In this document: in pieces, positions 24,549 through 56,702 of the stretch
Layout: each line of letters begins with the position of its first letter
Position numbering within the stretch: the stretch's first letter is position 1
Origin: Actinomycetes bacterium
Lineage (GTDB): Bacteria > Actinomycetota > Acidimicrobiia > Acidimicrobiales > RAAP-2
Reading direction: 5' to 3'
DNA length: 64,000 nucleotides
NCBI GenBank assembly: GCA_021791845.1
Contig: JAJYVT010000009.1
Span: 2,176 to 66,175, forward strand
Program-made: the position numbers and the translations under genes
The notes under the pieces: generated by a model
The model's database searches: none
Told to the model about the DNA's origin: nothing
What the model saw: only the letters and a program-made list of their open reading frames with translations

Positions 24549-24656
24549 GGGGCCCTCTTTCTACCGAGATCGATCGGCGCCGTCAAATGGCACCAGCGGC
24601 ACCGGGAGCCCGCGAGCACCCTGGCCAGGGCGGATCCCCCCTGGGGACACCCCCAG

Positions 24657-26642: not shown

Positions 26643-26701
26643 GGGCACCACAGTCGCACAGTGCCGGTGGACGGACGGGTGCGGGCGGGCAGACTGGGGC
26701 A

Positions 26702-26929
26702 GTGGCTCGACGACGCCGACCGCACCGCCCCTTGACCCTCGACGCCTCGCACTGGCGCGCCGACGGCCAGCCCAAGGTCCGCTTCGGATCCCGGGCCGAC
26801 GCCCTCGTCGCCGCATACGAGCGGGCGCAGGACGCCGACGCCGAGCTGGGCGTCTACGAGTGCGCCTTCTGCCACGGATGGCACATGGGCCGTCGCGCCG
26901 GCCGCCGTGGCGGCGTCGACGAACGCTGA
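26702..26929 (+). CDS. Small conserved-looking protein with CxxCHxxH motif (true start probably internal, around 26730)
   Basis: Very high G/C at third positions. Sequence ...PKVRFGSRADALVAAYERAQDADAELGVYECAFCHGWHMGR. Confidence 0.5.
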   Translation: MARRRRPHRPLTLDASHWRADGQPKVRFGSRADALVAAYERAQDADAELGVYECAFCHGWHMGRRAGRRGGVDER

Positions 26930-26968
26930 CACTGCACCGCTGGAGTGCTCAGGTCACGCTTGCGGTGC

Positions 26969-28861: not shown

Positions 28862-28986
28862 GGACGTTCACGTTAACGGGAGGTGCGGACTGCCCGCCTC
28901 CATCTCCAGCAGGACCGGGCGCCAGTGCCCGCGTCCCCCGGGTGCCGCCGGAACCCCCTGGCGGGGACGGCGGTAGCCTGTCGTCG

Positions 28987-29403
28987 ATGGACGAGACCCT
29001 CGGGGGTGGCGCCGGAGACGACTCCTTGGACCTGGACCTCCTGGCGTCGTCGCTGCGAGCCGACGACGGCGACGTCCGGGTCCTGCTCCGAGCGCTCGTG
29101 ACCCGGCTCGCCGGGGCCCTCGGCGAGCGCTTGGAGATCGAACGGACGGGCCGGTTCCGCAAGAGCGACGAGATCCGGCGCGTCTCGATCCGTCTCGGCG
29201 ACGACCAGCTGGACGCCGTCGTTGACCGAGGCAGCCTCGAGTGCACGATCAGCCGCAGCAGCGGCGGTATCCGGATCCGCTCGAGCCGGGTCACCCTCGA
29301 CGAGTGGCTGCGCCGGCTCCTCGGCGCGCTGCGGGACGAGGCGGCCACCACGCAGGCGACCCGCCTGGCCCTCGAGTCGCTCGTGATCGGAGGAACGCAA
29401 TGA
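28987..29403 (+). CDS. Small soluble protein of unknown function (first gene of the YbjQ operon)
   Basis: ATG at 28987. Good G/C at third positions. Acidic N-terminus, no TM. Its stop overlaps the next start (ATGA at 29400), with GGAGGA 5 nt upstream of that start. Confidence 0.65.
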   Translation: MDETLGGGAGDDSLDLDLLASSLRADDGDVRVLLRALVTRLAGALGERLEIERTGRFRKSDEIRRVSIRLGDDQLDAVVDRGSLECTISRSSGGIRIRSSRVTLDEWLRRLLGALRDEAATTQATRLALESLVIGGTQ

Positions 29404-30281
29404 CGGACCGTGAGCCGCAGACCGACGGGCGGGGCGCCCCGGCAGAGGCGCCCGCCGAGGAGGTCGCCGCCGGCCGTCTGCCCGCGGGCCTTCCCCCGGA
29501 CGCCAACCGGCGCCTGGCCGAGCTGGAGGACCGGCCGGGCCACAAGGGGATGTTCACCTCCGACCTGTCGGTGAACGAGTTCCTGCTCATCAAGGAGGTG
29601 GGGTTCCACCCGCTCGGCTTCGTGATGGGCAGCTCGATCTACCACCTCGGCATCCAGACCCGGCGGTGGTCGCAGAGCCAGGAGCTCTCCAAGCTGACGG
29701 AGGCGATGTACGAGGCCCGGCAGCTGGCCATGGACCGGATGGACGCCGAGGCGACCGAGCTCGGGGCCGACGGCGTGGTCGGGGTGCGCCTCGACGTCAA
29801 CTACTACGAGTGGGGGTCGGACACGGCGGAGTTCATCGCCGTCGGCACCGCGGTCAAGTCCGAGGACGGTCGCTCGTACCGCAACCAGCAGGGAAAGCCC
29901 TTCACCTCCGACCTGTCGGGCCAGGACTTCTGGGTGCTGATGCAGACCGGGCACGTTCCCCTCGGGCTGGTCATGGGAACCTGCGTGTACCACATCGCCC
30001 ACCGGGGGGTGGGCCAGACCCTGCGCAACGCCGGACGGAACGTCGAGCTGCCGAACTTCACCCAGGCCCTCTACGAGGCACGGGAGCTGGCCATGACCAG
30101 GATGCAGGACGAGGCCAACGCCCTCGGCGCCACCGGCATCGTCGGGGTGCGCCTCGAGGAGAAGAGCCACATGTGGGGCGACCACACGATCGAGTTCCTC
30201 TCCCTCGGCACGGCCGTGGCCGACACCACGGTCGGCCACACCATTCCCCAGCCGCAGACCATCATCTCCCTCGACGGGTGA
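29400..30281 (+). CDS. Tandem double YbjQ (DUF74/UPF0145) domain protein, paralogue 1
   Basis: Two repeats of the YbjQ pattern: FTSDLSVNEFLLIKEVGFHPLGFVMG...ARQLAMDRMDAEATELGADGVVGVRLDV...EFIAVGTAVK, then FTSDLSGQDFWVLMQTGHVPLGLVMG...ARELAMTRMQDEANALGATGIVGVRLEE...EFLSLGTAVA. Confidence 0.8.
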   Translation: MTDREPQTDGRGAPAEAPAEEVAAGRLPAGLPPDANRRLAELEDRPGHKGMFTSDLSVNEFLLIKEVGFHPLGFVMGSSIYHLGIQTRRWSQSQELSKLTEAMYEARQLAMDRMDAEATELGADGVVGVRLDVNYYEWGSDTAEFIAVGTAVKSEDGRSYRNQQGKPFTSDLSGQDFWVLMQTGHVPLGLVMGTCVYHIAHRGVGQTLRNAGRNVELPNFTQALYEARELAMTRMQDEANALGATGIVGVRLEEKSHMWGDHTIEFLSLGTAVADTTVGHTIPQPQTIISLDG

Positions 30282-31273
30282 TGACCCCGACAGCACCGAC
30301 AGCCGGGGCCGTCACAGGCGGCGCAGGCACAGCCGGCGGGGAAGGCGGCCTTCCCGAGGCCGCCACGCGCCGGTTGTCCGGCGGCGCCTGGTCCTCGGGG
30401 CTCTCGGTCACCGACTTCGCCTCCTGCCTCGACATGGGCATGCGGCCACTGGGCTTCGTCCAGGGCTACGCCGTGATGCAATGGAGCTGGTACATGGCCA
30501 CAGGCGGCTTCGCCGGCATGCGCGGGGGGCTCGGCGGCGGTGGCGCCTTCGGTGCAGGCTGGGGAACGGCGCAGCGCCGTCGCGGCCAGTACGTGGAGCA
30601 GTGGCAGTGCCCCCACGGCTTTGTCGGGGCCGAGCACCGCATGTACGGCATGAACTACGAGCTCACATGGCTCGAGCAGAGTTGGGCCACCGGGTGGGGT
30701 CTTGCCGTCGGCCGGATGGTGGACGAGGCTGCATCGCTGGGCGCCACCGGGATCGTGGGCGTCATCGACGACATGCGCCCCCTCGCCGGGGTCAACACGG
30801 TCGAGTTCCGAGCCAGCGGGACGGCCGTGGCCGTGGACGACGCCCCGGCGCCGGCGGCGCCGTTCACCACGTACCTGTCGGGACAGCGTCTGGCCAAGCT
30901 CTTCGAAGCGGGGTTCGCTCCGGTGTCCGTCGTGGCCACCTTGAGCGCAGTCCAGATGCTGGGCTACTGCATCACCAACTACCAGCTCGCCGGTACGGCG
31001 CAGGTCGGGTGGTACGGGGCCGGGGGCGGTGGAGGTGTCGGCACCATCGACCAGGTCAACCGGGCGCAAGCGGCGGCGCGGCGGCTGGCACGGGAGCGGG
31101 TCCGCGCCCAGCTCGGAGGGGACGTCCTCCACGGCGCCACGCTCGAGAGCTCGGAACGGGAGATCGGCGAAGGGGACCTCTCCGTCCAGTGCCTGCTCAA
31201 GGGCAGTCGCGTGCGCCAGTTCAAGGACTTCGACCCGCTCCCCCACCCGGCTCCGGTGGTGCGGCTCACGTGA
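30281..31273 (+). CDS. Tandem double YbjQ-like domain protein, paralogue 2 (Gly/Trp-rich insertions)
   Basis: ATG overlaps the previous stop by 1 nt (TGATG). LSVTDFASCLDMGMRPLGFVQG...VGRMVDEAASLGATGIVGV...VEFRASGTAVAV, plus a diverged second copy FTTYLSGQRLAKLFEAGFAPVSVV. Confidence 0.7.
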   Translation: MTPTAPTAGAVTGGAGTAGGEGGLPEAATRRLSGGAWSSGLSVTDFASCLDMGMRPLGFVQGYAVMQWSWYMATGGFAGMRGGLGGGGAFGAGWGTAQRRRGQYVEQWQCPHGFVGAEHRMYGMNYELTWLEQSWATGWGLAVGRMVDEAASLGATGIVGVIDDMRPLAGVNTVEFRASGTAVAVDDAPAPAAPFTTYLSGQRLAKLFEAGFAPVSVVATLSAVQMLGYCITNYQLAGTAQVGWYGAGGGGGVGTIDQVNRAQAAARRLARERVRAQLGGDVLHGATLESSEREIGEGDLSVQCLLKGSRVRQFKDFDPLPHPAPVVRLT

Positions 31274-31292
31274 TCGCCGGAGGCGACGCCAC

Positions 31293-32117
31293 ATGAGCGT
31301 TCGTGACGAGGTTCGCCAGGCGATGGGTGCTCTCTCCGGCGGCTCCGCCCCGGGCGGGCGCGGGGCCACGTCGGATCTCAGCATCGACGAGACGCTGCTC
31401 CTGCACTCGGTCGGCTGGGAGCCGGTGGACATGGTGTTCGGCGTCTCCTGGTGGTCGATCCCGTGGGGCGTGTGGCAGTGGACGACGGGCGAGGTGCAGG
31501 CGGCCTCCGCAGCGTTCGCCGGCGCCGTGGACCAAGCCGCCGGGCTGCTCCGCGGCGAGTGCCAGAAGGTTGGCGGGACCGGTGTGCTCGGCGTGGAGGT
31601 GTCGGTGCGCGTGTCGTCGCACCACGTCGCCATCGAGCTTGCCGGGACCGCGGTCAAGCGGACGGGTCGCCCGCACGAGGGGTTCGAGTTCATCTCCGAC
31701 CTCTCGGCCCGCGACTTCGTGCTGCTGACACGAGCGGGCTGGTGGCCGCTCGGGCTGGCGGCGGGGGCGAGCTTTGTCGTCGCCCCCCGACGCACCGTCG
31801 GCCAATGGGCGTCCCAGCAGGGCCAGAACACCGAGCTCCCGAACCTGACGGAGGCGCTCTACCTCGCCCGCGAAGGCGCGATGGAGCGCATGCAGCGGGC
31901 CGGCGCGTCCATGAAGGCGGACGGCATCGTCGCGGTGAAGCTCCGCGAGGGCAGGGCGAGCTCCAACATCCGGGTCATGCAGTTCGTGGCCATCGGGACC
32001 GGCGTGCACCTTCGGGCGGGCGAGCACCAGGTGATCGCGCCCACCATGGTCGTGCCGCTCGACGAACGGGTCCGCCAGTTCGACGTGACGAGCCTGCGGG
32101 GGTCCGGGGGGCGCTGA
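31293..32117 (+). CDS. Tandem double YbjQ-like domain protein, paralogue 3
   Basis: ATG at 31293 follows GGAGGCG. SDLSIDETLLLHSVGWEPVDMVFG...GTGVLGVEVSV...IELAGTAVK, then ISDLSARDFVLLTRAGWWPLGLAAG...AREGAMERMQRAGASMKADGIVAVKL...QFVAIGTGV. Confidence 0.75.
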   Translation: MSVRDEVRQAMGALSGGSAPGGRGATSDLSIDETLLLHSVGWEPVDMVFGVSWWSIPWGVWQWTTGEVQAASAAFAGAVDQAAGLLRGECQKVGGTGVLGVEVSVRVSSHHVAIELAGTAVKRTGRPHEGFEFISDLSARDFVLLTRAGWWPLGLAAGASFVVAPRRTVGQWASQQGQNTELPNLTEALYLAREGAMERMQRAGASMKADGIVAVKLREGRASSNIRVMQFVAIGTGVHLRAGEHQVIAPTMVVPLDERVRQFDVTSLRGSGGR

Positions 32118-32150
32118 GCTCCGTCCGCTGCAGGGCCTGCGTGGGCCGGA

Positions 32151-32519
32151 TCAGCGTCGCCCGGTGGCGTTGATCAGCTGCGTGGCCGCCATGCGGAAGT
32201 AGGCGAGCATCTCGCCCTCGTCGTCGGGGGCCAGCCCGCCGGAGCGCACCGCGGCCTCCATGTGGGCGAGCCAGGCGTCCCGTTCGGCGAGCCCGATGAC
32301 GAAGGGCGCATGGCGCATGCGCAGCCGAGGGTGGCCCCGCTCGTCGCCGTAGGTGCGCGGCCCTCCCCAGTACTGCACGAGGAACAGGCGCAGGTGCTCC
32401 TTCGGTGCCTCCAGGTCGTCCGGGTAGAGCGGGCGAAGGACCGGGTCCTCGGCGACACCGCCGTAGAACCGGTCGACCAGGTCCTCGAAGAAGGCGTCAC
32501 CACCGGCTCGCTCGTACAT
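32151..32519 (-). CDS. glbO: Group II truncated hemoglobin
   Basis: MYERAGGDAFFEDLVDRFYGGVAEDPVLRPLYP...FLVQYWGGP...RLRMRHAPF is the trHbO signature. Start is at ATG 32519. Confidence 0.85.
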   Translation of the reverse strand: MYERAGGDAFFEDLVDRFYGGVAEDPVLRPLYPDDLEAPKEHLRLFLVQYWGGPRTYGDERGHPRLRMRHAPFVIGLAERDAWLAHMEAAVRSGGLAPDDEGEMLAYFRMAATQLINATGRR

Positions 32520-32698
32520 CGTGGAAACCACCCTGATGACGGTAGACGGTCCACGGCCGTCCCGGGACGCCCGTCGGCCGTGCTCCGGGTGGGCCATCGG
32601 GAGCACCAGGCACGGGACGGGTCCCGGCCCTGGTCCGGGGACGCCTACACTCTCTCGTCGGCGACCGGCGCACCGTTGCCCGCCGGCGCGCACACCGC

Positions 32699-32769
<71 letters not shown>

Positions 32770-33011
32770 CTCATCCCAGCGCAGCCTCGTCCCTGGCGAG
32801 GACCCCCCGGGGGCGCGGGCGTGGCGGCGAGGCGGCATCGTGCCGGTGGCGCCTGCGGCATCGTGCCCGATTCGCCCGCGGCGGACCCGGGGGCTTAGCG
32901 TTGGGAACGGCACGCTCCTTGATGCCGGGGCACTGCCAGCCCGTGCCCGGGAGCCGTGGGCGGCGTTCGACCCCGACCCTGGACTTCGACGCGAGGAGAG
33001 GAGGATCCGGA

Positions 33012-33782
33012 ATGTGGAACAGCTTCAAGACGGATGACGACCACCTGGGAATCTCCGCCGGGATCACGACGTACCGTGCGGGGAACGGCGACGAGACCCA
33101 CACCTACGTGGTCCGGCCGACCACCGACGGCCCGGTGCCCGGCATCGTGCTCGTGCACCACATGCCGGGATGGGACGAGTTCACCCAGGAGTTCGCCGAG
33201 CGGCTCGGCCGGCACGGGTACCTCGTCACCTGCCCGGACCTCTACTGCCGCTTCGGCCACGGCACCCCCGACGACGTCGCGGCCAAGGTGCGCAGCGAGG
33301 GCGGGGTCCACGACGACAGCGTGGTCGCGGACTGCGAAGCGGCCGCGCAGTGGTTGCGCCAGGATCCCCAGTGCAGCGGCAAGCTGGGCATCATCGGACC
33401 GTGCTCAGGCGGCCGGCACGCGCTGCTCGTCGCCTCGCGCGTTGGAGGGTTCGACGCGGTGGTCGACCTCTGGGGCGGTGGCGTCATCATGCCGGACGAC
33501 CAGCTGACGCCAGCGCGTCCTGTGGCTCCGATCACCTACACCGCCGACCTCGACGCCCCCCTCTTGGGGATCTTCGGCAACGACGACCAGTCGCCGACGC
33601 CGGCCCAGGTCGACGAACACCAGGCCGAGTTGGAGAAGCACGGCAAGACCTTCGAGTTCCACCGCTACGACGGCGCGGGGCACGGGTTCTTCTACTACCA
33701 CACGCCCATGTACCGCCAGGAGCAGGCGATGGACGCGTGGGACAAGGTGTTCACCTTCTTCGACAGCCACCTGAAGCGCTGA
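33012..33782 (+). CDS. Dienelactone hydrolase family protein
   Basis: ATG at 33012 follows GAGGAGAGGAGG. PGIVLVHHMPGWDEFTQEFAERLGRHGYLVTCPDLY, nucleophile region GPCSGGRHA, C-terminal YDGAGHGF. Confidence 0.8.
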   Translation: MWNSFKTDDDHLGISAGITTYRAGNGDETHTYVVRPTTDGPVPGIVLVHHMPGWDEFTQEFAERLGRHGYLVTCPDLYCRFGHGTPDDVAAKVRSEGGVHDDSVVADCEAAAQWLRQDPQCSGKLGIIGPCSGGRHALLVASRVGGFDAVVDLWGGGVIMPDDQLTPARPVAPITYTADLDAPLLGIFGNDDQSPTPAQVDEHQAELEKHGKTFEFHRYDGAGHGFFYYHTPMYRQEQAMDAWDKVFTFFDSHLKR

Positions 33783-33836
33783 CAATCGCCGGCGGGGTTG
33801 TCGACCCGTCGACCGCGAGCGAGAGAGGAAAACGCC

Positions 33837-34103
33837 ATGTGCACGATGATCGCCGTCACCTCCCCGGTCACCGGGACGGGGAAGGGCGCGGAGGGCTGGT
33901 TCCCGATCACCCAGGCAACGGTCGGATACGACCACGCCACGCACTCGGGCACAGCGCATGCCCTCCTGCTGGACTTCACCAACTACGACCTCGGCCTCGA
34001 CGCGCGCGTTGCCGTCGAGCTCGACCTCGACTCGGGCCGCGCCCTGCTGGCGCAGCTGCAGTCCGCCATCGAGGCGGCGGAGGCGAGCGGCCAGGTGGCG
34101 TAG
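33837..34103 (+). CDS. Small conserved hypothetical protein (begins MCTMIAV; tentatively DUF6295-like)
   Basis: ATG at 33837 follows GAGAGAGGAAAA. Good G/C at third positions. 54 nt downstream of the hydrolase gene. The family assignment is from memory only. Confidence 0.55.
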   Translation: MCTMIAVTSPVTGTGKGAEGWFPITQATVGYDHATHSGTAHALLLDFTNYDLGLDARVAVELDLDSGRALLAQLQSAIEAAEASGQVA

Positions 34104-34162
34104 CCGGCGCGCGGCGCCGGGGCTGGCGCTGGCAGGCCCGAGAAGCTCGCAGGCTCGAGAAG

Positions 34163-35368
34163 TCAGCCGGTCCCGGCGAGGGCGCGCCCCATCCGCTCCA
34201 CCGCCTCGGTGAGCACGGTGGCCGACGTGGCGAAGTTGAGGCGGGCGCAGCTTGCACCGCCGGCCCCGAAGGCCGGTCCCGAGCTCAGCAGGACCCGGGC
34301 GTGCTCGAGCAGCCACGCGGCCGCCCCGACCTGGGCGCTGGCATCCCCCCGGGCGGCCCGTCCGCCGCCGTCGGCCGCTCCGAGGCGGGCCTCGCCGCCG
34401 AAGTCCATCCACGCCAGGTACGTCGCCGCTCCGGGCGTCCAGTGCACCGCGGGCAGGTGGTCGGCGAGCAGCTGGCCGAGCAGGGTCCGGTTGCGGTCCA
34501 GGCCGCGCAGCACGCCGTCCAGCCACTCCCGCCCGTGGCGCAAGGCGGCGGTGTGCGCCAGCACGCCGAGGTGGCTCGGCCCATGGCTCACCTCTTCGGG
34601 CAGCCGGGCGAGGTCCTCCGCGGCATCCGGTCCGGCGAAGGCGATCGCCGCCTTCAGGCCCGGCAGGTTCCACCCCTTGGATGCAGAGACGAGGGCGAAG
34701 CCCCGGCCGCCGCCGGGGACGGCGAGGTAGGAGGTGAAGGTCGCACCCGGCAGCACGAGCGGCGCGTGGATCTCGTCCGCCACGACCCGCACGCCCGTGG
34801 CGTTGGCGGCGGCGGCGAGGGCGGCGAGCTCGTCGGCCGAATGGACCGTCCCGGTCGGGTTGTGCGGGTTGCAGAGGAGGAACGCAGCCGGCCCCGCGGC
34901 CGCGGCCGCTGCGAAAGCGTCGGCGAGGGCGGGAGGGTCAAGGCGCCGGTCGGCCGTCAAGGGCACCTCGACCACGCGCCGGCCGAGGTGCTCGGCGAAG
35001 GCGTAGAACGGCGGGTACACCGGCGGGGTGACCAGGACCGCGTCACCAGGGCCGGTCACCAGCTTGAGGAGCTCCACCGCCCCGAGCATGACGTCGGGGA
35101 CCATCGCGCTGCGTGCCGGCTCGAAGCCGGCGAACCCCCACCGGTCGGCGGCGAAGTCGGCGTACGCCTCGGCATAGTCCGTGCCGAAGGCGTACCCCGT
35201 GTCTCCCCGATCGAGGGCCCGGCGCAGCGCCTCGACGATCGGGCGAGCCGGCATGACGTCCATCTCGGCGACCCAGAGAGGCAGTACCTCGGGTCCGGCC
35301 ACGCGCCACTTCGCGCTCGTGCGTTGACGGAGCTGGTCGAGCGAAAGGTTGAAGGGTTCCTCGTCCAT
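34163..35368 (-). CDS. PLP-dependent aminotransferase class I/II, MalY/PatB-type C-S lyase
   Basis: [13 protein letters not shown]...[11 protein letters not shown]-terminal signature of PatB/MalY, plus the [12 protein letters not shown] lysine motif. Confidence 0.85.
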
Positions 35369-48288: not shown

Positions 48289-49335
48289 ATGGCGAAGGCA
48301 ACCGGTGCACCGTCGCGGACCGGCGAGCCGCTCGTCGACAACCTCGTCGACACCGGCCGGGCCGACTTGGGTGCCCTGGAGGATGCTGCCATCGGGCGCG
48401 CCGCGGTGGCCGCGCTGCTGCCGACGTTGCGGCCCTACGTGCGCACGACGCCGGTCGTCCGAATCGACCGGGCCGAGCTCGACCTCCCGCCGGGGCCCCT
48501 CGTGCTCAAGCTCGAGCACCTCCAACACTCCGGTTCGTTCAAGGTCCGGGGCGCCTTCGCCAACCTCCTCACCCGCCCGGTCCCGGCCGCCGGGATCGTC
48601 GCCGCCTCGGGCGGCAACCACGGCTCGGCCGCCGCCTATGCCGCCGCACGCCTGGGCATCCCGGCCACGATCTTCGTCCCCGAGGTGTCGTCGCCGGCCA
48701 AGCGGGCCCGCATCGAGTCGTACGGCGCCACCCTCGTGGTCGGCGGGCCCGACTACGACGCCGCGCGCGCCGCCGCCGCCGAGTTCCAGGCCGCCACCGG
48801 CGCGATGGACGTCCCGGCCTTCGACGCCGCGCCCACCGTCCTCGGGGCCGGGTCGGCGGCGCTCGAGCTCCAGGACCAGGCGCCCGACGTCGACACGGTG
48901 CTGGCATCGGTGGGCGGCGGAGGGCTCCTGGCCGGGCTGTGCGCCGGCTACTCCCCGGAGGGGGGCGGACCGCACGTGCGGGTGATCGGCGCCGAGCCCG
49001 AGGGCGCCCCGACCCTGGCGACCGCGCTCGCCGCCGGGCGGCCGGCGGACGCGCCTGTCGGGAGCATCGCCATCGACTCGCTGGCCCCGCGCCGCATGGG
49101 GACCCACACCTTCGCCGTGATCGCCAGGCTCGGCTCGGGCGTGACGCTCGTGGACGACGACGCCATCGCCTCCACCCAGCAGTTGCTGTGGGACCGCCTT
49201 CGCCTCGTACTGGAGCCAGGAGGCTGCACCGGGTTGGCGGCCCTGGTCGCCGGCCGCTACGAGCCCGATCCGGGCGAGACGGTGGCGGTCGTGCTCAGCG
49301 GCGCCAACACGACGGCGGTCGACTTCTCCCGCTGA
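48289..49335 (+). CDS. PLP-dependent serine/threonine dehydratase family enzyme
   Basis: PLP-lysine motif LQHSGSFKVRGAF and glycine loop ASGGNHG. Confidence 0.85.
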   Translation: MAKATGAPSRTGEPLVDNLVDTGRADLGALEDAAIGRAAVAALLPTLRPYVRTTPVVRIDRAELDLPPGPLVLKLEHLQHSGSFKVRGAFANLLTRPVPAAGIVAASGGNHGSAAAYAAARLGIPATIFVPEVSSPAKRARIESYGATLVVGGPDYDAARAAAAEFQAATGAMDVPAFDAAPTVLGAGSAALELQDQAPDVDTVLASVGGGGLLAGLCAGYSPEGGGPHVRVIGAEPEGAPTLATALAAGRPADAPVGSIAIDSLAPRRMGTHTFAVIARLGSGVTLVDDDAIASTQQLLWDRLRLVLEPGGCTGLAALVAGRYEPDPGETVAVVLSGANTTAVDFSR

Positions 49336-49424
49336 GCTGCCGCACGCCGAGCCGCGGCCCGCGTGCCGCCGCCTCAGCTGCGGCGCCTCGCGCCGTCTCC
49401 CCCGCTTACTGGTCCACCATTACG

Positions 49425-49452
49425 GCACCAGGGCGAGTCATCCTCCTGGTGC
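49425..49452. terminator. 8-bp perfect inverted repeat GCACCAGG / CCTGGTGC (12-nt loop) between convergent genes; candidate bidirectional terminator
   Basis: Read directly, in a locally lower-GC convergent intergenic region (49336-49514). Confidence 0.3.
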
Positions 49453-49514
49453 ACCTCTGGTGACCACCGGTCCACCGCCATGCCCGCTCGCCACTCGATG
49501 GCCAGCCTGAGTTC

Positions 49515-51533
49515 TCAGGCGGTGCCCCGGCCGCGGCCGAGCCGGTCGGCGTGGACGATCTCGACGGGCGTCAGCTCGTCCGCCGGCTCGAAGCCCAGCA
49601 CCTTCCCGTAGAAGTAGAGCTCGGCCTCGGCCGTGCGCCGGACGTTCTCGGCCCGGCGGAACCCGTGCTGCTCGCCCTCGTAGGGCACGTAGGCGTGGGG
49701 AACGCCCTTGTCGCGCAATGCGGCGACCATGATCTCGGCCTGGTCCGGCGGCACGACCTTGTCCTCCAGTCCCTGGAAGATGATCAAGGGCGTGGCCAGC
49801 CGCTCGGCGTGCGCCACCGGCGAGCGGTCGCGGTACACGTCGGCTGTGTCCGGCCAGGGGCCGAACAGCCCGTCGGTGTAGCGAGACTCGAACTTGTGCG
49901 TCTCGTTCACGAAGACCATGGTGTCGGCGATCCCGAAGTAGCTGGCGCCGGCGGCGAAGACGTCGGTGAAGGTCGCGGCGCACAGCGTCGTGTACCCGCC
50001 GGCGCTCCCTCCGTGGATGAGGAGCCTGTTGCCGTCGACCCGTCCGGTGTCCACGAGGTGGCGCGCGGCGTTGACGCAGTCGGCGAGGTCGACCACGCCC
50101 CACGCCCCCCGGAGGCGCTCCCGGTAGGCCCGGCCGTACCCGGCGCTGCCCCCGTAGTTCACGTCCACCACGGCAAAGCCCCGGCTCGTCCAGAACTGGA
50201 TCCCGTAGGTGAGCACGGACCGGGCCATGCCCGTCGGCCCCCCGTGGATGCTCACGATCAACGGGGGGAGCTCGCCGGCGGGCGGCACGGCGTCCACGTT
50301 GCGCGGCGGATAGAAGAGCGCGTGGGCCGTCAGGTTCCCCTCGGTCGGGAACTCGATCGGTTCGGGCACCGACAGGTAGGCCTCACCCACGGTGTCGTCC
50401 CGGGACCGGCGCAGGACGTCGATCGGCGTGCTCGCCTCCTCTCCGGTCGCTGCGGCGCCGATCCGGACCACCGCCGGCGGCTGGGACGCAGAGCCGGCGA
50501 CGGCCACGACCGACCGGCCCTCGTCGTCAGGGCGCAGCTCGCCGAGCTCGGTGAGCGGCGTCGGGATCTCGACGAAGCGCCGGGCCCCCGGGCGCAGCAC
50601 GCCGAGCCGGCACAACCCCCGGTCGAACCACGTCCCGACGACGGACCCGTCGTGGCGGACGGCGAACGACGACGTGCCGAACACCCAGTCGGGCGACCCG
50701 AGGTCGTGGTCCATGACAGCGAGCGGCCGGTCCGGGCCGCCGTCGGGGTCCGCCGCGTAGATGTTCCACCAGCCGGTCCGGTCGGAGAGGAAGAGGAGCG
50801 TCCCGTCCGGCGCGAACTTGGGCTGGGTCACCGACTCCGACGGCCCGCCCGCCACGCGCCGCCGGGACGTCACCGAGGGGTGACCATCGGCGTCCTCGTG
50901 CAGCTCGCCGCACCACACCTCCGACTCGTCCCACGGCATGTTGGGATGGTCCCAGGTGACCCACGCCATCCGCCGCCCGTCCGGCGAGAGCACGGGATGG
51001 CCGAAGAAGTCGTGGCCTTCGAGGAGGACCCTCGGCTCCGAGCTCCCGTCGGTCGGCAGGACCACCACGTCGTTCGTCACCCCTGCGGGGGTGTCGGGGT
51101 CGGGGTGGCGCTCCCGCACGGCGACCAGGTGCTGCCCGCCGGGGGTGACGACGGGTGCCGCGAACCGGACGGCCCTCGGGGCCGGCGGCTCCGGCGTGAT
51201 GGGCCGCGGGACTCCGCCCGGATCGACGCGGTAGATGCGCTGGTCGGCGAAGTTGGAGAAGTACACGGTGTGGCCGTCGACCGCGTAACAGAGGCCGCCG
51301 TACTCGTGCACCAGCGTGCGAACGCTGAAGTCGGGGCCGAACACGTCCTCGGGGTCGGTCCCGTCGACCGCCGACCGCACGAGCACCAGGCGACCGCCCT
51401 CGGCCGGCCGGCTCTCGACCCAGTAGGTCCTGCCGCCCACCACCGACGGGAACGAAAGCCCCACGGCGCCTTCCACCAACACGTCGAGGGTGAGCGGCGA
51501 CGGCCAGGTTCCGAACGGGGCGGCGGAGGTCAT
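49515..51533 (-). CDS. S9 family serine peptidase (prolyl oligopeptidase / acylaminoacyl-peptidase type) with N-terminal beta-propeller
   Basis: C-terminal catalytic domain IHGGSAGGYTT (GxSxGG) and later ...GEQHGF. The long N-terminal region has a propeller-like repeat pattern. Confidence 0.85.
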   Translation of the reverse strand: MTSAAPFGTWPSPLTLDVLVEGAVGLSFPSVVGGRTYWVESRPAEGGRLVLVRSAVDGTDPEDVFGPDFSVRTLVHEYGGLCYAVDGHTVYFSNFADQRIYRVDPGGVPRPITPEPPAPRAVRFAAPVVTPGGQHLVAVRERHPDPDTPAGVTNDVVVLPTDGSSEPRVLLEGHDFFGHPVLSPDGRRMAWVTWDHPNMPWDESEVWCGELHEDADGHPSVTSRRRVAGGPSESVTQPKFAPDGTLLFLSDRTGWWNIYAADPDGGPDRPLAVMDHDLGSPDWVFGTSSFAVRHDGSVVGTWFDRGLCRLGVLRPGARRFVEIPTPLTELGELRPDDEGRSVVAVAGSASQPPAVVRIGAAATGEEASTPIDVLRRSRDDTVGEAYLSVPEPIEFPTEGNLTAHALFYPPRNVDAVPPAGELPPLIVSIHGGPTGMARSVLTYGIQFWTSRGFAVVDVNYGGSAGYGRAYRERLRGAWGVVDLADCVNAARHLVDTGRVDGNRLLIHGGSAGGYTTLCAATFTDVFAAGASYFGIADTMVFVNETHKFESRYTDGLFGPWPDTADVYRDRSPVAHAERLATPLIIFQGLEDKVVPPDQAEIMVAALRDKGVPHAYVPYEGEQHGFRRAENVRRTAEAELYFYGKVLGFEPADELTPVEIVHADRLGRGRGTA

Positions 51534-51576
51534 CGCCTCACCTTAGGCACGCCGGCTCTCGGGGCACCTGCCCCGT

Positions 51577-51891
51577 TCAATCGTCGAGGACGTCGCTCAG
51601 ACCCGCGGCCTCGAAGATGCGCCGGGTGGCACCACGCGCGCCCCGGATCTCCAGGCGGTGGCGACGCGTCAAGATGGCGTGGCGGGCGAGCAGCAGCGCC
51701 GACAGGCCGGTCGAGTCGATGAACTCCAATTGCGACAGGTCGGCCACGACCACGGGGCCGGTGCGCTCCACCAGGGTCCGCTCGACGGCGTCGGCGCTCA
51801 CCAGGTCGAGCTCGCCGAAGAGCTGCACGATGTCCACGCCGTGATCGCAGCTCACCTCGATCCGGAACGGTTGGGGGATCATCTCGTCCAT
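51577..51891 (-). CDS. STAS domain protein (anti-sigma-factor antagonist family)
   Basis: LFGELDLVSADAVERTL...VVADLSQLEFIDSTGLSALL is a typical SpoIIAA/RsbV-like core, including the conserved Ser in DSTG. The listed upstream extension is Arg-rich. Confidence 0.8.
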   Translation of the reverse strand: MDEMIPQPFRIEVSCDHGVDIVQLFGELDLVSADAVERTLVERTGPVVVADLSQLEFIDSTGLSALLLARHAILTRRHRLEIRGARGATRRIFEAAGLSDVLDD

Positions 51892-51977
51892 GGAATGCGG
51901 TACACCCTTCCCGGACGGGACCGCGCGCCGACGACGTCCCGCCGGGCGGACCACCGCCCGACGGCGGTTGGGGACGA

Positions 51978-52229
51978 CTACGCGTCGGCTGCGGGGATCT
52001 CCTCCCACCACTGGCACCACCAGTTCGCCCCGACCAGGATGCGGAGCTTGGGGTGCCAGCAGTACGACAGATCGTTGTACGGCTCGAGGTAGTAACGGCA
52101 GTTGTCGCACTTCTCGTCGCCCGACGGGTGCCCGCGCAGCACGGCGTTCTCCGCCATGTGGCGCAGCTCGATCGACACCTTCTCGTCGATCTCCTTCGGC
52201 TCGGGCTCGGGAATGACGTAGTCGGCCAC
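51978..52229 (-). CDS. HiPIP-like 4-Cys iron-sulfur protein without signal peptide
   Basis: Cys41-x2-Cys44-x12-Cys57-x14-Cys72 with CDNCRYY and PKLRILVGANWWCQWW. This closely mirrors the HiPIP pattern CxNCxF...CxxFPGKxVxxNGWCxxW. GTG start. No Tat/Sec leader. Confidence 0.65.
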   Translation of the reverse strand: MADYVIPEPEPKEIDEKVSIELRHMAENAVLRGHPSGDEKCDNCRYYLEPYNDLSYCWHPKLRILVGANWWCQWWEEIPAADA

Positions 52230-52341
52230 GCCCCGAACCTACTCGCCGGGCGGTGCGCACGCGAGCTGGCACACCCGGCGGCGACAGCGTGCCGGGTCCC
52301 GGCGCTGGCCCCCGGCGCGCCGGTCCCGACGGCTCACCCTC

Positions 52342-53898
52342 CTACGTCGGAGCACCCGGTCGCGCCGGTCCGGCGGCGGACCGCCCCGTGCCGCGGTGCG
52401 CGTCGCGAGCGGCGGCGCGGCGCCGCAGGCGCACGGGCACGTGCACGTAGAGGTCCTCCCGGTCGGGGGCTTCCTCCCGGTGGCCCGGCGGCTCCGGCAG
52501 CTCGTACGCCACCGGCCGAGCGTGGTCGGCGAGCTGGCGGTTCGGGTTGTAGACACGGCTGAAGTTCCAGATCATCTTGAGGAAGTTCGTCTGCCCGTGC
52601 GCGAGGTGGCGACCCACGATCCCCGCCGTCTGCGCCAGGGCCGAGACGCCGAGGTGCTTCTTGGCGAGGATCGCCTGGGTCCGGACGAGCTCCTCGTAGA
52701 AGCGGTGCAGCGGCAACGTGGTGGGGAGCACCGCGTGCTGGATGTCGAAGAGCCGGTAGTCCCGGGTGGTGAGCTTGCGCGACTCGCTGTGCCAGGTCTC
52801 GGTGCCGGGGTAGGGGGTCTGCACCGTGAGGTGCACGATCTCGGGCACCTCGGTCGCCCACTGCCGGACGGTGGCGAATTGCCGCTCGTCCCACGCCGGG
52901 TCCACGATCAGGTTGACGGCCACCGACAGGCCGAGCTGGCGGGCCAGCTCGAGGGCACGCATGTTGACGTCGGTGGTGCTGCGCTTGCGGAAGGCCTTCA
53001 GCCCCTCTTCGTCGATCGACTCGATGCCGAGGAACATGTAGTTGAGCCCGAGCCGCTTCCAGTACCGGAACACCTCGGGCTGTCGCACGAGGACGTCGCA
53101 CCGGGTCTCGAGGTAGTACTCCTCTTTGATACGCCGTCGCTCGATCTCGCGCCCGATGGCCATCCCGTGCTCGGGCTTGATGAAGGCGACGTCGTCGACG
53201 AGGAAGACCCCGGGCTCGCGTACCCGGGCCAGGTCATCCACGGCCGCCTCCGGCGACACCTGGCGATAGCTCCGGCCGTAGAACGTCCATGCGCTGCAGA
53301 ACGAGCAGTCCCACGGGCACCCCCGGCTGAACTCGATCGACGCGCAGGGGTCCAGCACCCCGATGAAGTACTTCCGGCGCCGGCCGCCGATGTGGCGCGC
53401 CGGGAGGTGGTCGTCGAGGCTGTGCACGGTCTCGGGGGACGGACCCGTGACGCCCGGGCCCACGGCCCCGGGCACCGACTCGAGCCCGCCGTCCCGAAGC
53501 GCCTCGACGAGCAACGGCGCGCCGGCCTCGCCCTCGCCGCGCAGCACGGCGTCGATGGCGCCGCCGGCGTGCTCGAGGACCCGCTCGGCCACGAACGACA
53601 CACTGTGGCCGCCGACGAACACGGCGCACCCGGGGGCCACCGCCTTGGTCGCCTTGGCCAGGTCGACGACCTCGGGCACGTTCGCCAGGTAATTCAGGCT
53701 CATCCCCACCGCGTCGGGCTGGAAGTCACGGAGCAGGGCGAAGTAGTCGTCGTGGTCGTACACCTGCAGGTCCACCATGCGGACGTCGTGGCCCGCGCCG
53801 AGGAGCGCGCTGGCCACGCGCTCGAGCCCCAGCGGCTCCAGGCGCAGGTAGAGCTCCGAGTACATCAAGGCACTCGGGTGGACGAGCACGATCCGCAT
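52342..53898 (-). CDS. Cobalamin-binding-domain (class B) radical SAM enzyme
   Basis: N-terminal B12-binding Rossmann-like domain (MRIVLVHPS...DAVGMSLNYL...VFVGGHSVSF), then radical SAM cluster motif FSRGCPWDCSFCSAW. About 518 aa. Confidence 0.88.
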   Translation of the reverse strand: MRIVLVHPSALMYSELYLRLEPLGLERVASALLGAGHDVRMVDLQVYDHDDYFALLRDFQPDAVGMSLNYLANVPEVVDLAKATKAVAPGCAVFVGGHSVSFVAERVLEHAGGAIDAVLRGEGEAGAPLLVEALRDGGLESVPGAVGPGVTGPSPETVHSLDDHLPARHIGGRRRKYFIGVLDPCASIEFSRGCPWDCSFCSAWTFYGRSYRQVSPEAAVDDLARVREPGVFLVDDVAFIKPEHGMAIGREIERRRIKEEYYLETRCDVLVRQPEVFRYWKRLGLNYMFLGIESIDEEGLKAFRKRSTTDVNMRALELARQLGLSVAVNLIVDPAWDERQFATVRQWATEVPEIVHLTVQTPYPGTETWHSESRKLTTRDYRLFDIQHAVLPTTLPLHRFYEELVRTQAILAKKHLGVSALAQTAGIVGRHLAHGQTNFLKMIWNFSRVYNPNRQLADHARPVAYELPEPPGHREEAPDREDLYVHVPVRLRRRAAARDAHRGTGRSAAGPARPGAPT

Positions 53899-54136
53899 GG
53901 CTGCCTCCCATCGGTATGGACGCCGAGCCCACTGCCCCGTCGCCCGGGAGGTGGGCGTCGCAGTGCCATTGCCCCGTCCGCCTCCCCTCGTAACGGGCGG
54001 GCGGGGAGGCGGGCGGCTCGAGGTGATGCCCCGGAGAATCCGAGGCTAGTCCCGGCGGGACGGGTACCGGCCCTTTGATGCGATCCGAGACCGGGCTCCC
54101 GTGAGCGGCCCGATGCCGGTTCTCCCGATGTTCTGA

Positions 54137-54158
54137 TACAATACGTCTCGTATCGTTA
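54137..54158 (+). promoter_or_regulatory. Candidate promoter (-10 TACAAT, 54137-54142) overlapped by palindrome ATACG-tct-CGTAT (54141-54153); likely TetR operator for the MFS-tetR operon
   Basis: The only AT-rich patch in the 342-bp divergent intergenic region, about 90 nt upstream of the MFS ATG. The TetR gene follows the MFS gene. Confidence 0.45.
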
Positions 54159-54240
54159 CCTCCGGTCCCCGAGACCCGGCCCGCTCCGCCCCCGACCATC
54201 TACCCGGCACCCGCGACGGTCAGCCAGGAAGGCGCACGAC

Positions 54241-55947
54241 ATGCCCGGCTTGCATCGCAAATGGTGGACGTTGATCGCCGTCTGCACCGCCATCTTCATG
54301 CTGCTGCTCGACATCACCATCGTGAACGTGGCGCTGCCCAGCATCCAGCACTCCCTCCACGCAAGCTTCAGCGACCTCCAGTGGGTGGTGGACGCCTACG
54401 CCCTCACCCTCGCCGCCTTCATGCTGACGGCAGGCGTGCTCGGCGACATGTTCGGCCGGCGGGGAACCTTCGCCATCGGCCTCGGCATCTTCTCGGCCTC
54501 CTCGTTCGTCTGTGGGGTGTCGGTCGACTCCCTCATGCTGAACCTGGCCCGCGCCGCGCAGGGCGTCGGTGGCGCCGTCATGTTCGCCACCTCGCTGGCC
54601 CTGATCGCCGAGGCCTTCCACGGCCGGGAGCGGGGCACGGCCTTCGGGATCTACGGCGCGGTGGTCGGCGGCGCCGTCGCCATCGGCCCGCTCCTGGGAG
54701 GGGCGATCACGAGCGCCGTCGGATGGCGCTGGATCTTCTTCGTGAACGTGCCCATCGGCGCCGTCGCCATCCTCCTCACGCTGACCCGCGTGCAGGAGTC
54801 CAGGGACCCAACCGGCCGGCACGTCGACTGGCTCGGGTTCCTCACCTTCTCGGGATCGCTGTTCCTGCTCGTCCTCGCACTGGTGCGCGCCGACACAGAC
54901 GGGTGGGGCAGCCCCCTCATCGTGAGCCTGTTCGCCGGCGCCGCGGCGCTGATGGCCGCCTTCGTGATCGGCGAGCTGCGCCAGCGACAGCCGATGCTGG
55001 ACCTTTCGCTGTTCCGTCGCCCGGCCATGGTCGGCGTGTCGTTCACCGCCTTCACCGTCGCAGCGTCGATCTTCGCCATGTTCCTGTACTTGACGCTGTT
55101 CCTCCAGGACGACCTGGGCTACAGCCCGTTGGGCGCGGGGGTGCGCTTCCTGCCGATCTCCATGCTCTCCTTCTTTGTCGCTCCGGTGGCGGGGAAGCTC
55201 ACGCAGCGCGTCCACGCCCGCGTCATGCTCGGCACCGGCCTGCTGCTCGTTGCCGTCGGGTGCCTGCTCATGGGGTTCCTCTCCCCCACGTCGGGTTGGA
55301 CGGCACTGCTGCCCGGGTTCATCGTCGCCGGCGTGGGGATCGGGATGGCCAACCCGGTGCTGGCCTCCTCGGCGGTGGCCGTCGTGCGTCCCGAGCGGAG
55401 CGGCATGGCCTCGGGGGCGAACAACACGTTTCGCCAGGTTGGCATCGCCACCGGGATCGCCGCCCTGGGGACGATCTTCGAGACGCAAGTGCGCAGCAAG
55501 GTGACCTCCTCGCTGCTCTCCACGCCGGCAGGGCGGGCCGCGGCCACCCAGCACGGCAAGGCGCTGGCGACAGCCCTCGTCTCCGGCGAGGTGCGCACAC
55601 GGATCGCCCACTGGCCGGCCGCCCAGGGCCACGCCGTGCTCGACGCCTACCGCGGAGCCTTCGCCACCAGCATGGACCACCTCTTCTTCGTGGCGGCCGG
55701 CGTCGCCTTCGTGGGCTCGGTGCTCTCCTACCTGCTGGTGCGTCAGCGTGACTTTGTCGCCTTTCAGGCGCCCCACGGTGGAGGCGGCGCCCCGGGTGGT
55801 GCCGGCGGACCCGCCGGAGGCGGGGGGCCGGGCGGAGGCGGCGGGAGCGGGCCGGCCGGCGGCCGGGACGGATCGGACGGCTCGGGAGCCGCCCCGGCGC
55901 CCGTCCCGGCAGGCACCGGGCCCGGTCGTGTGCCGGCACGGGCTTGA
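54241..55947 (+). CDS. MFS drug efflux transporter, DHA2 (EmrB/QacA) family, with Gly-rich C-terminal tail
   Basis: WWTLIAVCTAIFMLLLDITIVNVALPSI, LGDMFGRR, 14 TM helices. Tail GGGGAPGGAGGPAGGGGPGGGGGSGPAGG. Confidence 0.9.
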   Translation: MPGLHRKWWTLIAVCTAIFMLLLDITIVNVALPSIQHSLHASFSDLQWVVDAYALTLAAFMLTAGVLGDMFGRRGTFAIGLGIFSASSFVCGVSVDSLMLNLARAAQGVGGAVMFATSLALIAEAFHGRERGTAFGIYGAVVGGAVAIGPLLGGAITSAVGWRWIFFVNVPIGAVAILLTLTRVQESRDPTGRHVDWLGFLTFSGSLFLLVLALVRADTDGWGSPLIVSLFAGAAALMAAFVIGELRQRQPMLDLSLFRRPAMVGVSFTAFTVAASIFAMFLYLTLFLQDDLGYSPLGAGVRFLPISMLSFFVAPVAGKLTQRVHARVMLGTGLLLVAVGCLLMGFLSPTSGWTALLPGFIVAGVGIGMANPVLASSAVAVVRPERSGMASGANNTFRQVGIATGIAALGTIFETQVRSKVTSSLLSTPAGRAAATQHGKALATALVSGEVRTRIAHWPAAQGHAVLDAYRGAFATSMDHLFFVAAGVAFVGSVLSYLLVRQRDFVAFQAPHGGGGAPGGAGGPAGGGGPGGGGGSGPAGGRDGSDGSGAAPAPVPAGTGPGRVPARA

Positions 55948-56702
55948 CCCCGGTCGACGAGCCAGCTGAGATGGCGGCAGGGAAGGTCGAGATGACGACC
56001 GAGCACGCCGCTGACGAGGTGGGCGCCCCCGGCGCTGCGAGCACCGGCGCCGGCGAGGTGGCCGCTACCTGCCGCGGCCGGCCGAGGGACGAGCGGGCAA
56101 CCGCAGCCATCGCCGCCGCTGCGCTGCGGCAACTGGACGAGCTCGGCTACAGCCGCATGTCGATGGAATCGGTGGCGGCCGAGGCCGGGGTGGGACGGGC
56201 CACCGTCTACCGCCGCTTCCACGACAAGGCCGACCTCGTGACGGCGGCGATCGCCAGCCGGCCGGAGCCGGAAGCCGGTGACGGCGGCACGCTGGAGGCG
56301 CTCGTCGCCTTCCTGGACCGGTTCGACGCCCGGCTGGCCGAGCACTGCCTCGAGGTGATCGGCTGCCTGCTGGCCGCCCGGGAGGAGCCCCAGGCGATGG
56401 CGCTCCACCGCGACCGGGTCGTCCAACCCCGCATGCAGGTGGTGCGGGCCCTCCTCGAGCGGGCCCGCGACGACGGCCTCCTGCGGGACGACGCCGATCT
56501 CGACCTCGTCCTCCAGATGCTCGCCGGCGCCGTGTTCGCCCGCCGCATTGCCGGAGTGCCGTACGAGCCGAGCTGGGCACGCCGCGCCGTCGCCGAGGCG
56601 TGCCGCGGGGCGGCGACGCCCGACGGCCTGGCACGACTGCGACCGCACGGAGCGGCCAAGGCCGCCGCGGGCCGGGTGCCCAAGCGGGCCCGCCGGGGCT
56701 GA
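55944..56702 (+). CDS. TetR family transcriptional regulator
   Basis: HTH GYSRMSMESVAAEAGVGRATVYRRFHDKADLV. The start is uncertain: the listed TTG at 55944 overlaps the MFS stop, and ATG alternatives lie at 55971 and 55992. Confidence 0.85.
   Translation: MTPVDEPAEMAAGKVEMTTEHAADEVGAPGAASTGAGEVAATCRGRPRDERATAAIAAAALRQLDELGYSRMSMESVAAEAGVGRATVYRRFHDKADLVTAAIASRPEPEAGDGGTLEALVAFLDRFDARLAEHCLEVIGCLLAAREEPQAMALHRDRVVQPRMQVVRALLERARDDGLLRDDADLDLVLQMLAGAVFARRIAGVPYEPSWARRAVAEACRGAATPDGLARLRPHGAAKAAAGRVPKRARRG

Follow-up and report, generated by a model that had tools for sequence, protein, structure and literature searches.

3-Methylhopanes are rock biomarkers that have traditionally been attributed to aerobic methanotrophs and acetic acid bacteria. 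To our knowledge, the characterized HiPIPs are exported periplasmic carriers. Their clusters work at +0.05 to +0.5 V (PMC10654088). The hopanoid C-3 methylase HpnR was defined genetically in Methylococcus capsulatus (work cited by PMC13459092 and PMC12324291); the corresponding equivalog model is TIGR04367 (IPR027564), and Actinomycetota are already known to carry the enzyme (PMC12324291). The window analyzed here, a stretch of 64,000 nucleotides on contig C106 of an uncultured Acidimicrobiales genome, contains a gene run in which a predicted HpnR, a small HiPIP-like protein, a STAS protein and an S9 peptidase are encoded side by side.

ORF coordinates checked in the window agreed with the four closely spaced minus-strand genes that the original prediction had described (Table 1), and re-measurement of the gaps yielded 112 nt between hpnR and the gene of the 83-aa protein (hereafter, the small gene), 86 nt between the small gene and the STAS gene, and 43 nt between the STAS and S9 genes. 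GC3 values of 0.93–0.95 supported coding for three of the four ORFs; the STAS frame failed the GC3 filter and is taken to be coding because of its family matches. The Rfam scan of positions 49,000–54,600 at E ≤ 1 returned zero matches, including upstream of hpnR, and thus revealed no cobalamin riboswitch there. In folding, none of the three gaps did better than shuffled sequence (z-scores −0.3 to −1.0), and a pattern scan of the locus for sigma-70-like promoters and intrinsic terminators found nothing, such a scan being uninformative in actinobacterial DNA of 73% GC. We consider it highly probable that chance has placed four genes without a functional relationship on one strand, with hpnR ancestral and being lost, the small gene standing alone, the STAS protein an orphan and the S9 peptidase a housekeeping enzyme.

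Table 1 Features of the four-gene run and its flank in the window.
Feature	Position	Strand	Evidence
S9 (prolyl oligopeptidase family) serine peptidase, 672 aa, predicted cytoplasmic	49515..51533	-	Peptidase_S9, PD40
Putative orphan STAS-domain anti-sigma-factor antagonist, 104 aa, variable gene	51577..51891	-	PF01740, TIGR00377
Small gene, leaderless 83-aa protein of predicted HiPIP fold	51978..52229	-	Profile match, AF2 model, Foldseek
TAGGTT, -10-like hexamer, 6 nt before the small-gene GTG	52236..52241	-	Conservation; putative promoter
hpnR, predicted hopanoid C-3 methylase, 518 aa	52342..53898	-	TIGR04367, PF02310, PF04055
Divergent intergenic region, 342 nt, hpnR (-) vs MFS transporter/TetR pair (+)	53899..54240	.	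ORF coordinates

The radical SAM protein matched TIGR04367 with 832.8 bits (cut-off 650) over model positions 1–489 of 490; the second-best family, BchE, reached 144 bits, and none of the control genomes exceeded the TIGR04367 cut-off. An N-terminal B12-binding domain (PF02310, residues 16–128, 76 bits) is followed by the Radical_SAM domain (PF04055, residues 188–347, 72 bits) and the CPWDCSFC sequence, a CxxxCxxC radical SAM motif, at residues 194–201. These matches bore out the cobalamin domain and motif seen earlier, and the search against radical SAM subfamilies turned a suspected resemblance to hopanoid-type methylases into an assignment: judged from its sequence, the gene is hpnR at the equivalog level.

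The same genome encodes the hopanoid substrate pathway, as indicated by shc (737 bits) in a cluster with hpnC (306 bits) and hpnH (513 bits), accompanied by ispH and dxs, and it contains the cobalamin-synthesis marker cobQ (460 bits). This cluster sits on contig C75, not on the contig of the window. Across a set of 41 relatives, shc was present in 16 of the 17 genomes of the genus, and it accompanied HpnR in every HpnR-bearing relative except G014, which is 59% complete and contains only an hpnR fragment. By homology, HpnR would rely on methylcobalamin and a 5'-deoxyadenosyl radical generated from [4Fe-4S]/SAM to methylate, at C-3, the hopanoids supplied by the squalene-hopene cyclase cluster on the other contig, yielding 3-methylhopanoids. 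Methylation of a non-hopanoid substrate would agree with the separation of hpnR from the hopanoid cluster and with an Arg/Ala-rich C-terminal tail of ~30 aa that lies outside the TIGR04367 model; however, the protein clearly exceeds the equivalog cut-off across the whole model, shc and hpnH occur in the same genome, shc is lacking among HpnR-bearing relatives only in the incomplete G014, and Streptomyces and other taxa have HpnR proteins of comparable length, so we regard another substrate as very unlikely.

Comparison of the genus loci revealed the order ClpP–x–PALP–S9–(STAS)–small–(HpnR)–(MFS–TetR)–ECH–PDDEXK, in which the genes in parentheses appeared in all combinations and the MFS–TetR pair was present or absent independently of hpnR. 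The S9 gene was found in 12 of 13 loci and the STAS gene in 6, being missing from the other 7; most genus members contained S9 without HpnR, and G016 had HpnR without S9. In three or four HpnR-less genomes of the genus, relics of hpnR occupied precisely the interval from ECH to the small gene: the relic of G001 comprises residues 177–232 fused to 480–502 (E 5e-19); G012 and G005 exhibited matches with E values of 1e-9 and 0.004, respectively; and a fourth relic, that of G009, was recognized solely by visual inspection of the aligned DNA. Since these relics occupy the site in genomes without HpnR, hpnR is ancestral here and is now being lost. The HpnR tree, in which the window grouped with its own genus (99), then with an Acidimicrobiales MAG (95) and then with another genome from its family (93), likewise favors vertical inheritance with later loss. 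The gene would thus have stood at this site in the genus ancestor already, and would now be an accessory gene that disappears lineage by lineage.

The 83-aa protein has exactly four cysteines (41, 44, 57 and 72), each at least 90% conserved in its family, and contains the sequence WWCQWW. The Pfam HIPIP model (PF01355) gave 16.8 bits, under the gathering score of 22, and databases therefore label the protein hypothetical; a tandem-domain relative (P0121) reached 22.3 bits with the same model. The profile of the family matched the PDB HiPIPs 1pih and 2hip at an E value of about 9e-6 with all four cysteines aligned. An AF2 model (pLDDT 90.3) was used for a Foldseek search, in which the best ten matches were all HiPIPs, with TM scores of 0.46–0.70 normalized to the target and rmsd values of 2.1–2.7 Å for the crystal-structure matches. 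The earlier HiPIP-like label was thus right at the level of profile and fold; the modeled HiPIP fold appears genuine, and the protein would be expected to bind a [4Fe-4S] cluster. Its N-terminus is MADYVIPEPEPKE. The stop-to-stop frame spans only 86–87 codons and is therefore too short to accommodate a signal peptide; the frames of homologues span 84–107 aa, and neither frame length, N-terminus nor homologue frames gave an export signal for a periplasmic location, so the protein is presumably cytoplasmic. Fusions of the HiPIP-like domain (P0180, P0169, P0238 and P0161) contained no informative partner domains and are probably gene-calling artefacts.

Upstream of the small gene, the sequence TA[GA]NTT followed by GTG was kept in 13 of 13 genus loci, with or without hpnR, and the remainder of the upstream region was not conserved among them. 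TAGGTT in the window probably serves as the promoter for a leaderless mRNA, and the small gene would probably be transcribed from this promoter of its own. Read-through from hpnR is also possible, because no terminator-like pattern was found between the two genes.

Analysis of co-occurrence revealed the small gene in 20 and HpnR in 7 of the 41 relatives, and 14 of the 20 carriers of the small gene had no HpnR. Among 300 sampled Acidimicrobiia genomes, the small gene occurred in 38 (26 of 136 genera) and HpnR in one, with zero overlap. HpnR was found without the small gene in G268, and both were present but unlinked in G022. Eighty HpnR loci of other taxa (Actinomycetes, Binatia, Rokubacteria, Methylomirabilota and Proteobacteria; L044 among them) contained no HiPIP-like gene (E ≤ 1) and no STAS or S9 gene (E ≤ 1e-5) within 8 kb, in a neighbor search whose positive control recovered 17 of 17. 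The linkage of the four genes was therefore limited to one genus, with a variable subset even there, and was absent in the family, the order, the class and other phyla; the functional four-gene unit failed the neighborhood test that the original prediction had set for it. Outside the genus, the small gene had no conserved neighbor, and nothing united the genes around it; visual inspection identified their products as a PAS-GAF-PP2C phosphatase, a peroxiredoxin, DnaE2, a chorismate mutase, a GMC oxidoreductase and a P450. Going by its distribution, the small gene is a core, stand-alone gene of many Acidimicrobiia with no specific tie to HpnR.

These data bear on the proposal that the HiPIP-like protein is a dedicated, co-transcribed redox partner of HpnR, a private donor that would reduce cob(II)alamin or pass electrons to the radical SAM cluster. 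B12-dependent radical SAM enzymes need a reductant, hpnR directly precedes the small gene, in the same orientation, in each of the 5 genus genomes found to have both, and the gap between them contains no recognizable terminator. However, the adjacency within the genus follows from shared ancestry, and the small gene remains intact, with 83–91% identity, beside the decayed hpnR relics. Of its carriers, 14 of the 20 relatives and all 38 at the class level lack HpnR, and it has its own conserved -10-like box, whereas HpnR does without it in G268, has no such gene within 8 kb at 80 of 80 external loci and is unlinked to it in G022. Furthermore, the radical SAM cluster or the formation of cob(I)alamin needs a potential far below the HiPIP range, so that a HiPIP-type cluster would be too high in potential to act as the reductant. 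A dedicated donor is thus very unlikely on both phyletic and energetic grounds, and we attach equally little weight to the variant in which the small protein also serves HpnR in strains with both genes, a reading less likely than a HiPIP-fold branch of its own. Such an independent branch, undescribed, leaderless and cytoplasmic, occurring in ~13% of sampled Acidimicrobiia genomes, translated from a leaderless mRNA and without a conserved partner gene, is a proposal that we consider evenly balanced; a literature search on HiPIPs in Acidimicrobiia and on cytoplasmic HiPIPs in Actinobacteria yielded nothing specific.

The STAS protein matched PF01740 (53 bits) and TIGR00377 (59 bits, cut-off 53.45) and contains a DSTGL motif with a phosphorylatable serine. 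The genome contains 17 HATPase_c_2 (RsbW/SpoIIAB-type kinase) matches above cut-off, all on other contigs and none on C106; the earlier observation that no kinase or anti-sigma factor lies nearby therefore holds. The protein may act as an orphan anti-sigma antagonist within a large partner-switching repertoire. The neighboring peptidase matched Peptidase_S9 with 167.7 bits as well as the PD40 repeat, and has the nucleophile motif GGSAGG at residue 508, in agreement with its original assignment to the prolyl-oligopeptidase type. It reached no equivalog (Dpp5, 50 bits against 900; lasso-peptide isopeptidase, 47.6 bits against 400). Its presence across the genus loci marks it as a backbone gene of the genus, and it would be a housekeeping cytoplasmic oligopeptidase.

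A RiPP maturation pathway, with C-methylation by the radical SAM enzyme and subsequent cleavage by the POP-type peptidase, draws on the occurrence of both enzyme types in some RiPP clusters and on weak sub-threshold matches, that of the peptidase to the lasso isopeptidase and that of the radical SAM protein to TIGR03975 (60.9 bits, cut-off 281.85), but is effectively refuted and has a negligible probability, since the radical SAM protein is an HpnR equivalog far below every RiPP maturase cut-off (ApyD, 59.1 against 750), no precursor ORF is present, as had already been noted, the gaps of 43–112 nt leave no room for one, and the enzyme and peptidase are not co-conserved, as the HpnR of G016 and the S9-free external loci indicate.

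The preferred reading, that of a chance neighborhood of unrelated genes, provides a useful negative result: a B12-dependent radical SAM gene beside genes for a small Fe-S protein and a peptidase mimics a RiPP or redox module, yet forms none. Each further lineage with hpnR weakens the specificity of the 3-methylhopane biomarker, and the capacity predicted here extends to uncultured Acidimicrobiales, an incremental addition to the known picture. The capture of hpnR in mid-loss across one genus indicates that bacteria can dispense with C-3 methylation even when hopanoid synthesis belongs to their core functions. Within the locus, only the leaderless HiPIP-fold family could lead to something new; if the proposal is true, it would represent a cytoplasmic high-potential [4Fe-4S] protein that might, e.g., sense redox state or pass electrons to an oxidase-type enzyme of the cytoplasm.

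Compared with the described systems, the STAS protein resembles the SpoIIAA/RsbV-type anti-sigma-factor antagonists (TIGR00377) in being a single domain of ~104 aa with a DSxGL phospho-serine motif, and differs from them in that no gene for an RsbW-type kinase or a PP2C phosphatase adjoins its own, with at least 17 such kinases elsewhere in the genome. The peptidase shares with the S9 prolyl oligopeptidase family (acylaminoacyl-peptidase/dipeptidyl-peptidase type) an N-terminal beta-propeller followed by an alpha/beta-hydrolase domain with GGSAGG; unlike the named subtypes, it has no equivalog-level assignment. The predicted HpnR corresponds to known HpnR in the full equivalog model, the N-terminal B12-binding domain and the CxxxCxxC core, and in a host with shc, hpnH and a marker of cobalamin synthesis, whereas the host itself is an uncultured Acidimicrobiales genus within a class where the gene is rare (1 of 300 sampled genomes), and hpnR stands alone, apart from the hopanoid cluster, with sister species losing it. 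The 83-aa protein exhibits the C-x2-C-x12-C-x14-C pattern of HiPIPs (PF01355; Halorhodospira halophila HiPIP I, 1pih/2hip; Rhodothermus marinus, 3h31), aromatic residues around the last cysteine and a matching predicted fold; unlike known HiPIPs, it has an acidic N-terminus with a helix at its start in place of a Tat or other leader, and it occurs in monoderm Acidimicrobiia without a conserved redox partner gene nearby.

The radical SAM protein matched the NCBIfam model for the hopanoid C-3 methylase HpnR (TIGR04367) with 832.8 bits (cut-off 650), covering model positions 1–489 of 490; the runner-up family, BchE, scored 144 bits, and the TIGR04367 cut-off was reached in none of 14 control genomes. 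The protein is HpnR, a known enzyme, with its methylation chemistry assigned by homology, and the hopanoid-type methylase that the original prediction had mentioned as an aside was right. The window belongs to contig C106 of a 3.5-Mb MAG, about 91% complete, which its relatives and named homologues assign to Acidimicrobiales. The same genome encodes a squalene-hopene cyclase (737 bits) on another contig, flanked by genes for HpnC (306 bits), an IspH fusion, HpnH (513 bits) and Dxs (assigned by eye). The IspH reading frame of this cluster carries approximately 230 extra N-terminal residues, which may be a fused domain resembling hopanoid-associated nucleosidases. A match to CobQ (460 bits) points to possible cobalamin synthesis in this genome.

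The four minus-strand reading frames lie as predicted, 112, 86 and 43 nt apart, and domain searches confirmed the labels given to all of them. In HpnR a B12-binding domain is combined with a Radical_SAM domain, and residues 194–201 read CPWDCSFC; the third protein matched STAS and the anti-sigma-factor antagonist model TIGR00377 (59 bits), and the fourth Peptidase_S9 (168 bits) with PD40 propeller repeats. The GC content of the window (70–77%) generates numerous spurious reading frames. Three of the four frames showed a GC3 of 0.93–0.95 and the codon-position GC pattern of genuine genes, and the STAS frame, which failed this filter, is taken as coding from its family matches. The STAS gene is an orphan, as had been proposed, because no RsbW-type kinase domain is encoded on its contig, with at least 17 elsewhere in the genome. 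Divergent from hpnR, genes for an MFS transporter and a TetR regulator overlap by 4 nt (54241–56702, plus strand).

Coordinates of the four reading frames and related features (window positions unless another contig is named)
Feature	Position	Strand	Detail
HpnR (radical SAM)	52342–53898	minus	518 aa
Small HiPIP-like protein	51978–52229	minus	83 aa
STAS protein	51577–51891	minus	104 aa
S9 peptidase	49515–51533	minus	672 aa
TAGGTT hexamer	52241–52236	minus	window's copy of TA[GA]NTT
hpnR relic, G001	L022 (G001:C86) 9106–9351		residues 177–232 fused in frame to 480–502; 66% identity, E 5e-19
hpnR relic, G012	L021 (G012:C152) 3882–4080		residues 405–471, E 1e-9
hpnR relic, G005	L031 (G005:C194) 4095–4175		C-terminal tail, E 0.004
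Hopanoid cluster hpnC, shc, hpnH, dxs	G000:C75, about 23877–34988		window's genome, outside the window

Comparison with other genomes revealed that the four genes are not a functional unit; HpnR adjoins unrelated genes. The small gene was present in 20 and HpnR in 7 of 41 relatives, and an even sample of 300 Acidimicrobiia yielded a single genome with HpnR and 38 with the small gene, the latter from 26 of 136 genera, with no genome among the 300 carrying both. A further comparison covered 80 external HpnR loci and the 8 kb on either side, taken from Streptomyces, Actinomadura, Streptosporangiaceae, Binataceae, Rokubacteria, Methylomirabilota and Proteobacteria: no locus contained a HiPIP-like protein (HMM, E ≤ 1; the HMM recovered 17/17 positive controls), and none a STAS protein or S9 peptidase (phmmer, E ≤ 1e-5). 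Linkage is variable even within the genus, where the backbone reads ClpP-x-PALP-S9-(STAS)-small-(HpnR)-(MFS-TetR)-ECH-PDDEXK with the bracketed genes in every combination, and all four genes are common only to the window and one relative (G006). G022, from a different genus of the same family, has HpnR on one contig and a distant homologue of the small gene on another, and outside the genus no neighbour of the small gene is conserved. The predicted functional coupling is thus unsupported. Also in this family but outside the window's genus (L024, G019:C3, 6697–9766), a large PAS-GAF-PP2C (SpoIIE/RsbU-type) phosphatase gene and a STAS-like reading frame directly precede the HiPIP-like gene, a second, non-homologous juxtaposition of STAS with this gene that is probably coincidental.

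In genus members without HpnR (G001, G012 and G005), remnants of hpnR occupy precisely the interval from ECH to the small gene, and G009 has an apparent 3′ remnant recognized by eye in a DNA alignment. In the HpnR tree the window clustered with the other members of its genus (SH-aLRT 99); an Acidimicrobiales MAG joined this group next (95), followed by the same-family G022 (93). Remnants and tree together show that hpnR is old in the lineage, stood at this site in the genus ancestor and was repeatedly deleted; the relics are snapshots of its loss within one genus. The in-frame G001 relic still keeps the CxxxCxxC motif. As shc occurs in 16 of 17 genus members, hopanoid synthesis is core there and C-3 methylation accessory. 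The MFS-TetR pair was gained or lost independently of hpnR, marking the interval from ECH to the small gene as an indel hot spot. The small gene remained intact through these changes (83–91% amino-acid identity), and its neighbours diverged more (S9 60–78%, STAS 63–84%).

Read-through co-transcription of the run is possible, because the genes are adjacent on one strand with no recognizable terminator between them. Intergenic folds were no better than those of shuffled sequence, and no riboswitch was found at the locus. Just 5′ of the small gene's GTG, which has no upstream Shine-Dalgarno sequence, the sole conserved DNA is TA[GA]NTT followed by a 6–7-nt spacer, present in 13/13 genus genomes with or without hpnR. 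This element fits an actinobacterial −10 box, suggesting a leaderless mRNA, and would give the small gene a promoter independent of hpnR.

The HiPIP-like label was borne out by profile and fold. Phyletic pattern and synteny leave unsupported the proposal that this protein is a private electron donor to the radical SAM enzyme. Reducing a radical SAM [4Fe-4S]2+ cluster or cob(II)alamin takes roughly −0.4 to −0.6 V. HiPIP clusters operate instead at about +0.05 to +0.5 V (PMC10654088), a range from other HiPIPs, which makes the mismatch a supporting rather than decisive argument against the donor role. A RiPP pathway also found no support, RiPP-type and P-methyltransferase models all scoring far under their cut-offs for HpnR.

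The 83-aa protein matched Pfam HIPIP weakly (16.8 bits; gathering score 22) and belongs to a small family, which 50% clustering reduces to 155 representatives; the members that the homologue search listed are all unannotated or called "hypothetical protein". Conservation is at least 90% at Cys41, Cys44, Cys57, Cys72 and Trp70, and the family profile hit only HiPIPs in the PDB (top 1pih and 2hip, E about 9e-6), with all four cysteines aligned. The AlphaFold model (pLDDT 90.3) retrieved HiPIPs as all ten top Foldseek hits (target-normalised TM 0.46–0.70; rmsd 2.1–2.7 Å for the crystal structures among them). The stop-to-stop frame is so short (86–87 codons; 84–107 in homologues) and the N-terminus so acidic that no export signal is possible; this is thus a leaderless, presumably cytoplasmic protein, with profile and model placing it in the HiPIP fold. 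Homologues P0121, P0152 and P0167 (147–171 aa) carry tandem duplications of the domain in two matched stretches, P0121 narrowly exceeding the Pfam threshold (22.3 bits). This leaderless family is the sole element of the locus deserving separate follow-up.

HpnR is a B12-dependent radical SAM methylase yielding 3-methylhopanoids, identified genetically and still lacking in vitro study (PMC13459092), and was previously recorded in Actinomycetota (PMC12324291). The locus is an ordinary finding: HpnR in a lineage where HpnR is rare.
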